From the NCBI RefSeq assembly GCF_053078305.1, contig NZ_CP166879.1: a stretch of 64,000 bases of DNA; one strand, 5' to 3'. The notes below the pieces were generated by a model. It was given only the letters and a program-made list of their open reading frames with translations. It made no database searches and was not told the origin of the DNA. Within the stretch, counting starts at the first letter, position 1, and each line of letters starts with the position of its first letter. The translations under genes were made by a program, and so were the position numbers. Shown in pieces: positions 4,962-31,104 of this stretch.

Positions 4962-5072
4962 TAAAAAGAATTCAGAATCAGGCCGGAGTGCTAAATACTC
5001 CGTAAACACGGTCGTACATCCAGCCGGTAGCCTGATTCCTTGCATTGAGTGATGTACGGAGTTTATAGAGCA

Positions 5073-11543: not shown

Positions 11544-12329
11544 GTGGTTCTTATGTCCGAAACAAAAAATGAACTTGAAGACCTGCTGGAAAAAGCAGCA
11601 ACCGAACCGGCGCACCGCCCGGCCTTTTTCCGTACTCTACTGGAATCCACCGTCTGGGTGCCTGGTACGGCGGCGCAGGGCGAGGCTGTGGTTGAAGATA
11701 GCGCGCTTGATTTACAGCACTGGGAAAAAGAAGACGGCACCAGCGTCATTCCTTTTTTTACCTCGTTAGAAGCACTTCAACAGGCGGTTGAAGACGAACA
11801 GGCATTTGTCGTAATGCCCGTTCGCACATTGTTTGAGATGACCCTTGGCGAAACGCTCTTCCTTAATGCCAAACTGCCGACCGGTAAAGAATTTATGCCG
11901 CGTGAAATCAGTTTGTTGATTGGTGAAGAGGGAAATCCGCTGAGCAGCCAGGAAATCCTGGAAGGCGGTGAATCGCTGATATTATCGGAAGTCGCAGAGC
12001 CGCCAGCACAAATGATTGATTCACTCACCACCTTATTTAAAACCATTAAGCCTGTGAAGCGTGCTTTTATTTGTTCAATTAAAGAGAACGAAGAGGCACA
12101 GCCTAATTTACTTATTGGCATTGAAGCCGATGGTGATATCGAAGAAATTATTCAGGTGGCGGGAAGTGTAGCGACCGATACATTACCTGGCGATGAACCA
12201 ATCGATATTTGTCAGGTGAAAAAAGGGGAAAAAGGAATTAGCCACTTTATTACCGAACATATTGCGCCATTCTATGAACGTCGCTGGGGTGGTTTTTTGC
12301 GTGACTTTAAACAGAATCGGATAATCTAA
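11544..12329 (+). CDS. sseB: serine sensitivity enhancing protein SseB
   Basis: 261-aa ORF; synteny; alternative start at 11553 (MSETKNE). Confidence 0.8.
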   Translation: MVLMSETKNELEDLLEKAATEPAHRPAFFRTLLESTVWVPGTAAQGEAVVEDSALDLQHWEKEDGTSVIPFFTSLEALQQAVEDEQAFVVMPVRTLFEMTLGETLFLNAKLPTGKEFMPREISLLIGEEGNPLSSQEILEGGESLILSEVAEPPAQMIDSLTTLFKTIKPVKRAFICSIKENEEAQPNLLIGIEADGDIEEIIQVAGSVATDTLPGDEPIDICQVKKGEKGISHFITEHIAPFYERRWGGFLRDFKQNRII

Positions 12330-12646
12330 AATATGCCGCCCCAAAGGGCGGCATTCGGGCTTACCTGCTGCTCTGAAGGTTGTTAATCACCAGTAAATTG
12401 TTACCGGAGAGACTCCGGTTATTATTTACCTCGGTTAACAGCGCACCAGAAACAATAAGTACGATACAAAAGCACCGTATCTTCATTGTGCGGTCCATGC
12501 GAAGACCGCATCACGACAGCACCACTGGCGATATTGCCGCGATAGCAAGCGCTGTGAAACACCTGCATTTACGGCCACGGAACATCCTTTCCTAAAGCCA
12601 GCGCCCGTTTGCGAGACGGCGGAAAGGGCCGGTGTCGATAATACGC
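12330..12646 (-). ncRNA. ryfA: ryfA-like RNA copy 1 (candidate small-protein mRNA, TimP/RyfA family)
   Basis: location between sseB and sseA; minus-strand terminator hairpin at 12332-12353; conserved internal hairpins; predicted length ~300 nt; 5' end inferred. Confidence 0.45.
12361..12498 (-). CDS. 45-codon small hydrophobic ORF inside ryfA-like copy 1 (MDRTMKIRCFCIVLIVSGALLTEVNNNRSLSGNNLLVINNLQSSR), candidate small membrane toxin
   Basis: hand-translated minus strand; conserved in copy 2 with 2 synonymous and 2 conservative changes; not in ORF track (below size cutoff). Confidence 0.4.
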   Translation of the reverse strand: MDRTMKIRCFCIVLIVSGALLTEVNNNRSLSGNNLLVINNLQSSR

Positions 12647-12661
12647 TAAATAAACAATAAT

Positions 12662-12704
12662 TACTCTCTTTTGCTTGACAAAAAGAGAGTTGCTGGCGAA
12701 TATT
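12662..12704. promoter_or_regulatory. palindromic divergent promoter region of ryfA-like locus copy 1
   Basis: inverted repeat ACTCTCTTTT-GCTTGAC-AAAAGAGAGT centred on TTGACA (plus) / TTGTCA (minus) -35-like hexamers. Confidence 0.35.
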
Positions 12705-12709
12705 GCTCT

Positions 12710-12812
12710 GCTGTGAAGCACCTGCGTTGCTCATGCAACACAAGTCAATCTGCTGGAGAGGCCGCGAACCAAACCGGCAACAAATAACCGCCTGATTTTG
12801 GCGGTTTTTTGT
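12710..12812 (+). ncRNA. candidate short plus-strand sRNA divergent from ryfA-like copy 1
   Basis: TTGACA-N18-AATATT promoter-like sequence at 12675-12704 and hairpin+T6 terminator at 12786-12812; internal hairpin GTTGC-loop-GCAAC conserved in copy 2 with loop change. Confidence 0.3.
12786..12812. terminator. bidirectional rho-independent terminator (copy 1)
   Basis: AACCGCC-TGATTT-GGCGGTT followed by TTTTTT. Confidence 0.55.
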
Positions 12813-12930
12813 TGCTTAAAGAAAGTGAATTTACATGTTTAAGTAATATCTTTTACCGGTTAGTATTTTTAATATTGAGCGGGATTTGTTTATATTTGTC
12901 TGAATTCGGACTAATAAGCCAGGTTATTTT

Positions 12931-13010
12931 ATTACTGACATATTGCGCCATTCTATGAACGTCGCTGGGGTGGTTTTTTGCATCACTTTAAACAGAATCG
13001 GATAATCTAA
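12931..13010 (+). pseudogene. duplicated 3' fragment of sseB carried on repeat unit 2
   Basis: near-identical to sseB codons for ...HIAPFYERRWGGFLRDFKQNRII* but without upstream gene. Confidence 0.55.
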
Positions 13011-13327
13011 AATATGCCGCCCCAAAGGGCGGCATTCGGGCTTACCTGCTGTTCTGAAGGTTGTTGACCACCAGTAAATTGTTGCCGGAGAGACTCCGGT
13101 TATTATTTACCTCGGTTAACAGCGCACCAGAAACAATAAGTACGATACAGAAGCACCGTATCTTCATTGTGCGGTCCATGCGAAGACCGCATCACGACAG
13201 CACCACTGGCGATATTGCCGCGATAGCAAGCACTGTGGGGTGCCTGTATTTACGGTCATGGAACATCCTTTCCTAAAGCCAGCGCCCGTTTGCGAGACGG
13301 CGAAAAGGGCCATTAAGAATAATACTC
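13011..13327 (-). ncRNA. ryfA: ryfA-like RNA copy 2
   Basis: 681-bp offset copy of 12330..12646 with conserved terminator hairpin at 13013-13034. Confidence 0.4.
13042..13179 (-). CDS. 45-codon small hydrophobic ORF, copy 2 (…VVNNLQNSR)
   Basis: same frame and length as 12361..12498; differences F(ttt>ttc) and G(ggt>ggc) synonymous, I>V and S>N conservative. Confidence 0.4.
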   Translation of the reverse strand: MDRTMKIRCFCIVLIVSGALLTEVNNNRSLSGNNLLVVNNLQNSR

Positions 13328-13391
13328 TCATGTTTGAATAATTACTCTGTTTATTATCTTGACACAGCCAGGCATAAAAGAGAGTATTTCA

Positions 13392-13495
13392 ACACTGTGG
13401 GGTGCCTGCGTTGCTCCGGCAACACAAGTCAACCTGCTGGAAAGGCCGCGAACCAGACCAGCAATAAAAAACCGCCAAATTCGGCGGTTTTTTAT
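13392..13495 (+). ncRNA. candidate short plus-strand sRNA, copy 2
   Basis: homolog of 12710..12812 ending at hairpin AAAAACCGCC-AAATTC-GGCGGTTTTT. Confidence 0.3.
13466..13495. terminator. bidirectional terminator shared by sseA and ryfA-like locus
   Basis: perfect hairpin flanked by A6 and T6, 15 bp beyond sseA stop. Confidence 0.6.
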
Positions 13496-13509
13496 TGCCT
13501 GTAAAAAGC

Positions 13510-14355
13510 TTATTTCAATGGCTCAACCGGTAAATCTGCCCGCGCGCCCCATTCACTCCATGCGCCGTCGTACAGTTTCACGTTTGGCACATCCAGCGTC
13601 GCGAGTGCCAACAAAACCACGGCTGCTGTTACACCAGAGCCGCAGCTGACGATAATCGGTTTGTCATAGCTGACGCCGCGACCAAAAAATATCGCATCCA
13701 GTTCATCGGTCGTTTTTAGTTCGCCTTCGCGCACCAGTTCCGTCCACGGAACGTTCAATGCACCTGGAATATGTCCGCGACGTAAACCTGGGCGAGGTTC
13801 ATCAACTTCTGCGTTAAAACGTGCAGCCGGGCGGGCATCAATAATTTGCGCCGTATTTTCATGGCTTGCCAATAACACATCGGTTACTTTCACCACTACT
13901 TCAGGATTAAACGCGGCGTTAAACTCTCCTTCCGGCAGCTCTACTGCACCTTCTTCTAACAACAGATCATCGCGCTGCCAGCCTGCAAGTCCACCCCCCA
14001 GAATCGACACTTTCTCTACACCAAAGGTGCGCAGCATCCACCATGCTCGTGGGGCTGAGAAAAGATTACCTTCGTCATAGACAATCAGGTGCTTATCCTG
14101 GTTAACGCCTAATTCACGCATCGCCACGGCGAACGTTTCCGGGCGCGGCAGCATGTGCGGAAGCGGGGAAGTGTGATCAGAAAGCGCTTCGATATCAAAA
14201 AACACTGCGCCGGGAATATGTCCATTCAGATACTCCTGAGCAACGTTACGATCTTCCTGTCCAGGCGACGCCATGCGGGCATCGATAATCTGAATTTCCG
14301 GGTCATCAATATGTTCGGCGAGCCAGTCGGCTCCTACAAACCATGTCGTGGACAT
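13510..14355 (-). CDS. sseA: 3-mercaptopyruvate sulfurtransferase SseA
   Basis: ORF track 13510..14514; recognised start MSTTWFVGADWL gives 281 aa; rhodanese CSGSGVTA motif. Confidence 0.9.
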   Translation of the reverse strand: MSTTWFVGADWLAEHIDDPEIQIIDARMASPGQEDRNVAQEYLNGHIPGAVFFDIEALSDHTSPLPHMLPRPETFAVAMRELGVNQDKHLIVYDEGNLFSAPRAWWMLRTFGVEKVSILGGGLAGWQRDDLLLEEGAVELPEGEFNAAFNPEVVVKVTDVLLASHENTAQIIDARPAARFNAEVDEPRPGLRRGHIPGALNVPWTELVREGELKTTDELDAIFFGRGVSYDKPIIVSCGSGVTAAVVLLALATLDVPNVKLYDGAWSEWGARADLPVEPLK

Positions 14356-14561
14356 AGGCATCTCCATTTTTGCCGGGGTTAGGCTAAATTGTCGGATGTT
14401 TAGTGAAAAGCGACAAGCAAAAGAGGCTGATTTGGCTGTCTGAGCCACAATTCTCACTAAAATTCGGATTGTATGGGCGTGATACTGAATTACATAACGT
14501 AAATTCTCACGCATAATAATTATTCGACGTTGCTAACGGGCCATTGTGGCAGGGATGAAAA

Positions 14562-29875: not shown

Positions 29876-30994
29876 ATGCATAACCAGGCTCCAATTCAAC
29901 GTAGAAAATCAACACGTATTTACGTTGGGAATGTGCCGATTGGCGATGGTGCTCCCATCGCCGTACAGTCCATGACCAATACGCGTACGACAGATGTCGA
30001 AGCAACGGTCAATCAAATCAAGGCGCTGGAACGCGTTGGCGCTGATATCGTCCGTGTCTCCGTACCGACGATGGACGCGGCAGAAGCGTTCAAACTCATC
30101 AAACAGCAGGTTAACGTGCCGCTGGTGGCTGACATCCACTTCGACTATCGCATTGCGCTGAAAGTAGCGGAATACGGTGTCGATTGTCTGCGTATTAACC
30201 CTGGCAATATCGGTAATGAAGAGCGTATTCGCATGGTGGTTGACTGTGCGCGCGATAAAAACATTCCGATCCGTATTGGCGTTAACGCCGGATCGCTGGA
30301 AAAAGATCTGCAAGAAAAGTATGGCGAACCGACGCCGCAGGCGTTGCTGGAATCCGCCATGCGCCATGTTGATCATCTCGATCGCCTGAACTTCGATCAG
30401 TTCAAAGTCAGCGTGAAAGCGTCTGACGTCTTCCTCGCTGTTGAGTCTTATCGTTTGCTGGCAAAACAAATCGATCAGCCGCTGCATCTGGGGATCACCG
30501 AAGCGGGTGGCGCGCGCAGCGGGGCAGTAAAATCCGCCATTGGTTTAGGTCTGCTGCTGTCTGAAGGCATCGGCGACACGCTGCGCGTATCACTGGCGGC
30601 CGATCCGGTCGAAGAGATCAAAGTCGGTTTCGATATTTTGAAATCGCTTCGTATCCGTTCGCGAGGTATCAACTTCATCGCCTGTCCGACCTGTTCGCGT
30701 CAGGAATTTGATGTTATCGGTACAGTTAACGCGCTGGAGCAACGCCTGGAAGATATCATCACTCCGATGGACGTTTCGATTATTGGCTGCGTGGTGAATG
30801 GCCCGGGTGAGGCGCTGGTATCTACACTCGGCGTCACCGGCGGCAACAAGAAAAGCGGTCTCTATGAAGATGGCGTGCGCAAAGACCGTCTGGACAACAA
30901 CGATATGATCGACCAGCTGGAGGCACGCATTCGTGCGAAAGCCAGTCAGCTGGACGAAGCGCGTCGAATTGACGTTCAGCAGGTTGAAAAATAA
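29876..30994 (+). CDS. ispG: HMBPP synthase IspG
   Basis: 372-aa [26 protein letters not shown]. Confidence 0.95.
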
Positions 30995-31104
30995 TAACGT
31001 GATGGGAAGCGCCTCGCTTCCCGTGTATGATTGAACCCGCATGGCTCCCGAAACATTGAGGGAAGCGTTGAGGGTTCATTTTTATATTCAGAAAGAGAAT
31101 AAAC

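Follow-up and report, generated by a model that had tools for sequence, protein, structure and literature searches.

The window, the 64,000-nucleotide stretch of DNA analysed here, most probably encodes a TimR-family antitoxin small RNA (sRNA) on its plus strand at 12710-12811 (probability about 0.93), which would pair with the 5' untranslated region (5'UTR) of the divergent timP1 gene and block translation of the toxin TimP. We describe the anatomy and homology of this RNA and of a second TimR copy, the copy-specific complementarity between each RNA and its neighbouring toxin gene, and the covariation that supports their structure. The sRNA, known as RyfB in Shigella and as IS129 or ECS011 in K-12, the divergent layout, the pairing site and the mechanism have all been published before, and a two-copy locus is known from Shigella. 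The features to which the text refers are as follows.

12328-12632, minus strand: timP1 mRNA (ryfA copy 1), Rfam RF00126 at 320.6 bits, variable region TGTTT (ryfA2 type)
12361-12486, minus strand: TimP1 toxin open reading frame (ORF), 41 aa, NCBIfam NF040796 (toxic_TimP) at 88.6 bits (cut-off 45)
12550-12569, minus strand: predicted site of TimR binding on the timP1 mRNA, covering the 5' arm and loop of SL2 (Rfam stem-loop, model positions 68-87)
12643 to 12638, minus strand: timP1 -10 box TATTAT; all genera keep a TAnnAT equally far from the 5' end of the mRNA
12663-12690, no strand: perfect palindrome ACTCTCTTTT-GCTTGACA-AAAAGAGAGT, arms complementary at 10/10 positions
12675-12703, plus strand: timR1 sigma70 promoter, -35 TTGACA (12675-12680), 17-nt spacer, -10 GAATAT (12698-12703)
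12709-12728, plus strand: seed at the 5' end of TimR copy 1, with complementarity to the timP1 5'UTR
12710-12811, plus strand: probable TimR-family antitoxin sRNA copy 1, seed type A, RyfB2 type (covariance model and homology)
12726-12739, plus strand: hairpin 1, GTTGC-TCAT-GCAAC, paired in 96.8% of cells over 19 homologs
12751-12779, plus strand: hairpin 2, near-invariant loop GGAGAGGCCGCGAACC, stem paired in 93% of cells
12768-12977, minus strand: Rfam IS128 match (RF00125), 210.4 bits (gathering score 80), overlapping the last 45 nt of TimR copy 1 in antisense
12780-12811, plus strand: Rho-independent terminator of TimR copy 1 (terminator scan and fold)
13009-13313, minus strand: timP2 mRNA (ryfA copy 2), RF00126 at 323.1 bits, variable region CACCC (ryfA1-like)
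13042-13167, minus strand: timP2 ORF, NF040796 at 84.2 bits
13394-13494, plus strand: TimR copy 2, seed type B, RyfB1 type, -35 at 13359-13364 and -10 GAGTAT at 13382-13387

The plus-strand RNA and its locus

Two timP/timR modules lie in tandem between sseB, which ends at 12329, and sseA (13510-14514, minus strand), as the product of a 681-bp duplication. A direct repeat joins 12257-12556 to 12938-13237 with 97% identity, and a second one joins 12698-12809 to 13382-13493 with 78% identity. The edge of the tandem duplication is marked by a duplicated 3' fragment of sseB (...ATTGCGCCATTCTATGAACGTCGCTGGGGTGG...TAA) at 12938-13005, which the RefSeq annotation of strain ES5 carries as a partial pseudogene. 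The full two-copy stretch was matched at an identity of at least 95% in roughly 49 of 5,425 complete E. coli genomes. Elsewhere in the window, Rfam matches on the plus strand to the iscR stability element (4962-5071, 138 bits) and to sroE (30994-31085, 117 bits) fit a segment of an E. coli or Shigella chromosome. RefSeq annotates timP at the equivalent place in E. coli genomes and no RNA gene there.

For the search that identified the plus-strand RNA, we built a covariance model (R1) from Salmonella TimR, rebuilt from the published T7-template oligos EHO-1419/1420 (PMC7667032 Table S2), and from homologs outside Escherichia, so that it contained no Escherichia sequence. Across the 64 kb, R1 matched 12709-12811 over its full length (model positions 1-97) with 69 bits (E-value of 2.5e-14) and TimR copy 2 at 13393-13494 with 92.1 bits (E-value of 1e-19); apart from these two copies, this search gave no match above 29 bits. 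Homology to the 5' end of Salmonella TimR (CTACGG...) places the start site of copy 1 within 12709-12711. Its 3' end would fall in the T-run, and the resulting RNA of about 100 nt, from about 12710 to about 12811, closes with the hairpin and T6 terminator that the initial annotation had described. The genes timR1 and timP1 are divergent and do not overlap, with start sites about 80 bp apart, and complementarity between the two RNAs spans only about 20 nt, which separates them from the cis-antisense type I class (Sok, Sib and Rdl type).

Rfam returned no family for the plus-strand RNA at either gathering or permissive thresholds, and it holds no TimR family. Several matches below threshold were set aside: RNAI, the sole plus-strand match at copy 1, reached 14 bits against a threshold of 47, while sraL (32 bits against 39) and AgrB (30.7 bits against a gathering score of 40) at copy 2 are chance matches.

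The predicted structure of the RNA is consistent with this assignment. Hairpin 1 has a counterpart in copy 2 (GTTGC-TCCG-GCAAC, 13410-13423), appears in both the minimum free energy and centroid folds predicted for the two TimR RNAs, and is also predicted independently by RNAalifold. Changes on both sides of the stem (G-C to A-U or the reverse) occur at two of its five pairs across 19 distinct homologs, and its covariation score of 0.169 exceeds that of all 500 shuffles and of every slid register. A structured RNA had been proposed from the loop difference between the two copies. That difference is no covariation, and it is the compensatory changes across genera, found by the comparison of homologs that the initial annotation had suggested, that bear the proposal out. 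Hairpin 2 shows one-sided changes only in its stem, and its loop is almost invariant over seven genera. The core stem of the terminator (12786-12806) has 7 bp, five of them G-C, with a loop of 7, is followed by T6 at 12805-12810, and carries compensatory changes at two pairs among the homologs. Copy 1 as a whole folds with a z-score of -2.2. In E. coli ES5, the 3' half of the TimR-B terminator carries a small tandem duplication (GGCGGTTTTTTATTTTCGGCGGTTTTTTATTGCC) relative to the window.

To place the two copies in a wider family, we scanned species-representative genomes with a pattern for the conserved SL4 hairpin of ryfA. This identified timP loci in Yersinia, Rahnella, Erwinia, Pantoea, Citrobacter, Superficieibacter, E. 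coli and E. whittamii. The pattern missed Salmonella, which has an A in place of the final C, and 15 chance matches in unrelated phyla were discarded. A common TimR layout lies upstream of timP on the opposite strand, 70-85 bp away, in 18 of the 20 loci scanned. It consists of a CTTGACA -35 box with a -10 box about 17 nt later; a hypervariable seed of about 18 nt at the 5' end that matches nt ~61-80 of timP from the same locus; and then TGCGTT, a 5-bp hairpin, GGAAAGGCCGC / CTGCTGGAAAGGCCGC..ACC.GACCAGCA and a terminator. At the Citrobacter amalonaticus and Yersinia aleksiciae loci, neither the TimR core nor the seed was recognisable in the 330 nt upstream. There, a terminator-like TimR 3' end directly adjoins the timP 5' end, which suggests that these two modules are rearranged or truncated.

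Part of the same DNA is claimed for the opposite strand by Rfam, and the 210-bit IS128 match at 12768-12977 raises the question of whether the real gene is a minus-strand sRNA, with the hairpin at 12786-12806 terminating that RNA and the plus-strand features being incidental. The terminator hairpin is indeed flagged on the minus strand as well, but it is only on the plus strand that a T-run (T6) follows the stem; on the minus strand ATTTGTTGCC comes next. Conservation across genera also covers the plus-strand promoter, seed, hairpins and terminator. In K-12, Shinhara et al. (2011) detected IS129/ECS011, antisense to IS128, as bands of about 95 and about 100 nt, and did not detect IS128 with strand-specific probes, its original detection having used a double-stranded probe (PMC3175480). 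These northerns also contradict the idea, which the initial annotation had raised against itself, that the terminator is used by minus-strand transcripts only. We consider a minus-strand gene very improbable, and what the IS128 family describes appears to be the opposite strand of the TimR terminator, the downstream spacer and the sseB 3' remnant. A partial IS128 match is also found at copy 2 (13452-13520, minus strand, 38 bits).

Less probable still is that the plus-strand transcript is the mRNA of a small protein. Two ORFs that begin with TTG, 12671-12787 (38 aa) and 12703-12795 (30 aa), are present in the mechanical ORF list, yet the longer one begins upstream of the predicted start site, and no Shine-Dalgarno sequence was seen upstream of either. 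A 5-nt indel and the hypervariable 5' end break the frame in the alignment of homologs, where conservation tracks base pairs and not codons. The TimR assignment is useful for annotation, as RefSeq labels only the timP coding sequence and Rfam is without a TimR family; since Rfam models IS128 on what is probably the wrong strand, a scan of this locus comes up with a structured RNA that has no annotation.

Seed pairing and copy specificity

The 5' seed of TimR copy 1 forms 20 contiguous pairs (17 Watson-Crick and 3 G-U) with nt 64-83 of the timP1 mRNA. Full-length RNAduplex gave meaningless end-to-end pairing, and we therefore restricted duplexes to the seed and searched for complementarity without gaps, with shuffled sequences as the control. 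The predicted duplex energy of the copy 1 seed is -37.5 kcal/mol with timP1 and -16.6 kcal/mol with timP2, against a mean of -23 kcal/mol (sd 2.8) for shuffled seeds. The copy 2 seed has 16 contiguous Watson-Crick pairs with timP2 and reaches -38.2 kcal/mol with this target and -27.0 kcal/mol with timP1, the latter through G-U wobbles. In a matrix of three seed and target types, cognate combinations lie between -34 and -37 kcal/mol and the rest between -12 and -25 kcal/mol. Together with the family anatomy, the R1 match and the covariation, this pairing supports the resemblance to TimR/TimP noted in the initial annotation, with the plus-strand RNA as the TimR homolog.

Seeds and targets of the two modules (12550-12569 and 12709-12728 in copy A; 13231-13246 and 13393-13408 in copy B) differ by transitions only, and cross-pairing is asymmetric as a result. 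TimR-B is predicted to wobble-pair with timP-A through seven G-U pairs (-25 to -27 kcal/mol), while A-C mismatches leave TimR-A without predicted pairing to timP-B (-15 to -17 kcal/mol). As the transitions in the seeds match the changes in the two target sites, each sRNA seems tuned to its own toxin mRNA.

Going by the literature, both timR and timP would be transcribed in the source strain, and TimR would act at the level of translation. TimR1 would be transcribed from the sigma70 promoter TTGACA-17-GAATAT and end at the intrinsic terminator, and its single-stranded 5' end (12709-12728) would pair with the 5' arm and loop of SL2 in the timP1 5'UTR, at a predicted site more than 50 nt upstream of the timP1 start codon. 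By analogy with Salmonella, this pairing would open SL2 and destabilise the SL1-SL3 pseudoknot, so that the Shine-Dalgarno sequence would stay locked in SL4 and TimP, a membrane toxin of 41 aa, would remain untranslated. In Salmonella, TimR was found to bind SL2 of the active conformer and to destabilise the SL1-SL3 pseudoknot while the Shine-Dalgarno sequence stays sequestered (PMC11228461, PMC13000454), and the predicted target site in the window has the equivalent position. The toxin-antitoxin role of timPR is demonstrated only in Salmonella, because TimP protein went undetected in Shigella and E. coli and deletion of timR in avian pathogenic E. coli (APEC) had no clear phenotype (PMC5333039, PMC13188913).

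A second stretch of complementarity lies between the TimR loop GGCCGC (12756-12771) and the 5' arm of timP1 SL4, GCGGUC (12502-12510), with 6-9 bp counting G-U pairs. This could be a second TimR-timP contact or chance, as a 6-bp match is not significant. Covariation is of no help here: neither side varies, and the search pattern itself prescribed SL4.

With timR and timP pointing in opposite directions, the DNA of the TimR seed repeats that of the timP target site in direct orientation. In E. coli 400660, at about 900-930 (compared with 12550-12712 of the window), a deletion fuses the target site exactly to the seed (…GATAGCAAGC joined to GCTGAGACGCGC…). The lost segment takes in both promoters together with some 60 nt from the start of timP, yet RefSeq still has a timP coding sequence in this genome.

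Other E. coli strains combine the types differently. E. coli NZ_CP026359 (K-12-like, 1929-2400) and ATCC 8739 have one timP with a type A target and two TimR-like genes. The TimR adjacent to timP carries a type C seed (CGCTGAGACGCGC) that matches the target partially (-25 kcal/mol, four mismatches), and a near-perfect type A TimR is found ~320 bp further on, adjoining sseA; in front of this TimR, about 20 nt from the start of a deleted timP copy remain. The two K-12 TimR paralogs, at 98 and 101 nt with the boundaries set here, could account for the ~95 and ~100-nt bands of Shinhara et al. That E. coli strains differ in the TimR seed type beside each timP matters for the reading of timR and ryfA deletion phenotypes.

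Promoters and the palindrome over the timR -35 box

The promoters of timR1 and timP1 stand back to back. For timR1, the TTGACA-17-GAATAT spacing predicts a start site at 12709-12711, in agreement with the alignment to the Salmonella TimR 5' end, and the layout matches that of the Salmonella timR promoter in oligo EHO-1349 (TTGACA-17-GAGTAT-TAATC/+1). The -35 box within CTTGACA is invariant across all genera compared. The -10 box is weak, with GAATAT matching at 3/6 positions or AATATT at 4/6; read with the latter and an 18-nt spacer, the promoter has 10/12 matches and is the top promoter-like site in our scan of 12200-13600. For timP1, homology to the Salmonella +1 (GGCCCTTTCC) places the start site at about 12630. 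The Salmonella timP start reads ...GGTATTATCTTTCCC/+1 GGCCC and is likewise preceded by TATTAT (oligos EHO-1224, 1421 and 1348).

As described in the initial annotation, -35-like hexamers are present on both strands, TTGACA at 12675-12680 on the plus strand and TTGTCA from 12681 to 12676 on the minus strand. Its proposal of a palindromic divergent promoter stands for one side only: TTGACA is the timR -35, but 32 nt separate TTGTCA from the conserved timP -10, so that it cannot be the -35 of that promoter, and the two genes share no -35 box. With a 16-nt spacer to TATTGT, TTGTCA scored 9/12 in the promoter scan. We rejected this combination as the main timP promoter, since both the conserved -10 box and the +1 placed by homology are 15-17 nt further downstream; TATTGT itself is not conserved, and the intergenic region of Rahnella is too short for it. 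The site may provide a weak secondary timP start near 12647.

The inverted repeat over these hexamers is real, although it had been placed one base off (12662-12689), with a 7-nt loop that drops one A. Its arms are ACTCTCTTTT (12663-12672) and AAAAGAGAGT (12681-12690), and its 8-nt loop GCTTGACA coincides with the timR -35; relative to timP1, the left arm spans about -33 to -42. The 64-kb window has seven loci with a perfect 10-bp inverted repeat and a loop of 3-12, against 0.6 expected from dinucleotide-type shuffles, and shuffling gave P~0.003 for such a palindrome in the 80-bp intergenic region. These comparisons indicate that it is more than chance. As the palindrome lies outside both transcripts, any role would have to be at the DNA level.

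In this position, ACTCTCTTTT-N8-AAAAGAGAGT might be the operator of a dimeric regulator that covers the timR -35 and the position of a timP -35 and switches toxin and antitoxin jointly. Such an operator, which would add to the TimR assignment and is no alternative to it, seems unlikely to us, though less so than the two rival readings of the transcript discussed above. In its favour, a 10/10 repeat is unlikely by chance, and K-12-like strains (at each of their two timR promoters) and strain MSB2_1A keep palindromes with arms of 10-12 bp despite differing downstream seeds. Both arms also persist in the rearranged palindrome of window copy 2, but with a spacing of 21 nt that differs from that of copy 1. 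The timR spacer of Salmonella has an inverted repeat of its own with a different sequence (CTCCCTT-aa-AAGGGAG).

Against an operator, the palindrome is degenerate in E. whittamii (8/10), and the timR promoters of Citrobacter, Yersinia, Rahnella, Erwinia and Superficieibacter lack it; that of Pantoea has only an unrelated 8-bp repeat of marginal significance. The palindrome is thus significant only in Escherichia promoters of types A and C, and its absence outside Escherichia rules it out as a feature of promoters family-wide. Its persistence within E. coli is explicable by recent common ancestry, gene conversion or template-switch mutation. A text search of a collection of papers gave no match to its sequence, and we know of no regulator motif that matches it. 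Either a lineage-specific operator or neutral inheritance may hold. As an operator, it would provide the so far missing cue for the timing of TimP synthesis, and the promoter palindrome could bear on the question of when TimR is turned off.

Comparison with known systems

The closest described relative of the plus-strand RNA is TimR of Salmonella. Andresen et al. (2020) reported that ryfA of Salmonella encodes the toxin TimP and that translation of this toxin is blocked by TimR (STnc2070), a divergent sRNA, through an 18-nt pairing with the 5'UTR, supported by compensatory mutants; they observed TimR by northern blot in Salmonella and found TimR-like sequences upstream of timP across enterobacteria (PMC7667032). 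TimR has also been seen by northern blot in E. coli CFT073 and CH138 (PMC13188913). The window copies share with Salmonella TimR the divergent, non-overlapping position upstream of timP/ryfA, the TTGACA-17-GAnTAT promoter, and the complementarity of the 5'-terminal ~18-20 nt to SL2 of the timP 5'UTR. Also shared are the hairpin GTTGC-N4-GCAAC, the core CTGCTGGAAAGGCCGCGAACC, the terminator and the length of about 100 nt. They differ in the seed, which co-varies with the target of each copy, in the tandem arrangement of two modules, and in the geometry of the palindrome, which is unlike the Salmonella spacer repeat. Unlike Salmonella TimR, copy 1 has a 5-nt insertion (AAGTC) after hairpin 1.

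The two-copy arrangement resembles that of Shigella dysenteriae, where each of the two ryfA copies has a divergent transcript of about 100 nt upstream; Fris et al. (2017) found these transcripts by RNA-seq, called them ryfB1 and ryfB2, and described a complementarity of 16/18 that overlaps a 5-nt variable region (PMC5333039). The window likewise has two ryfA copies, each with a divergent RNA of about 100 nt, and its complementarity overlaps the same variable region, with types TGTTT (ryfA2) and CACCC (ryfA1-like). Under the typing of Fris et al., the TGTTT of copy 1 makes the plus-strand RNA a sibling of the RyfB2 type. In S. dysenteriae, RyfB1 lowers RyfA1 and not RyfA2 (PMC5333039). This functional test covered RyfB1 only, whereas window copy 1 corresponds to the RyfB2 type, and Fris et al. 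read RyfA and RyfB as non-coding regulators, TimP then being unknown. IS129/ECS011 of K-12 shares the strand and position of the TimR 3' part, along with the bands of about 95 and about 100 nt, but in K-12 another seed type adjoins timP.

Beyond the TimR family, OrzO/zorO, IstR-1/tisB, OhsC/shoB and AgrB/dinQ also place a short divergent sRNA beside a toxin gene, and OrzO, IstR-1, OhsC and AgrB pair over about 18-20 nt with the toxin 5'UTR, at a site remote from that of ribosome binding. Their sequences are unrelated to TimR, the AgrB model reaching 30.7 bits at copy 2 only. The mRNAs of zorO, tisB, shoB and dinQ need nucleolytic processing, whereas timP relies on a structural switch (PMC11228461).
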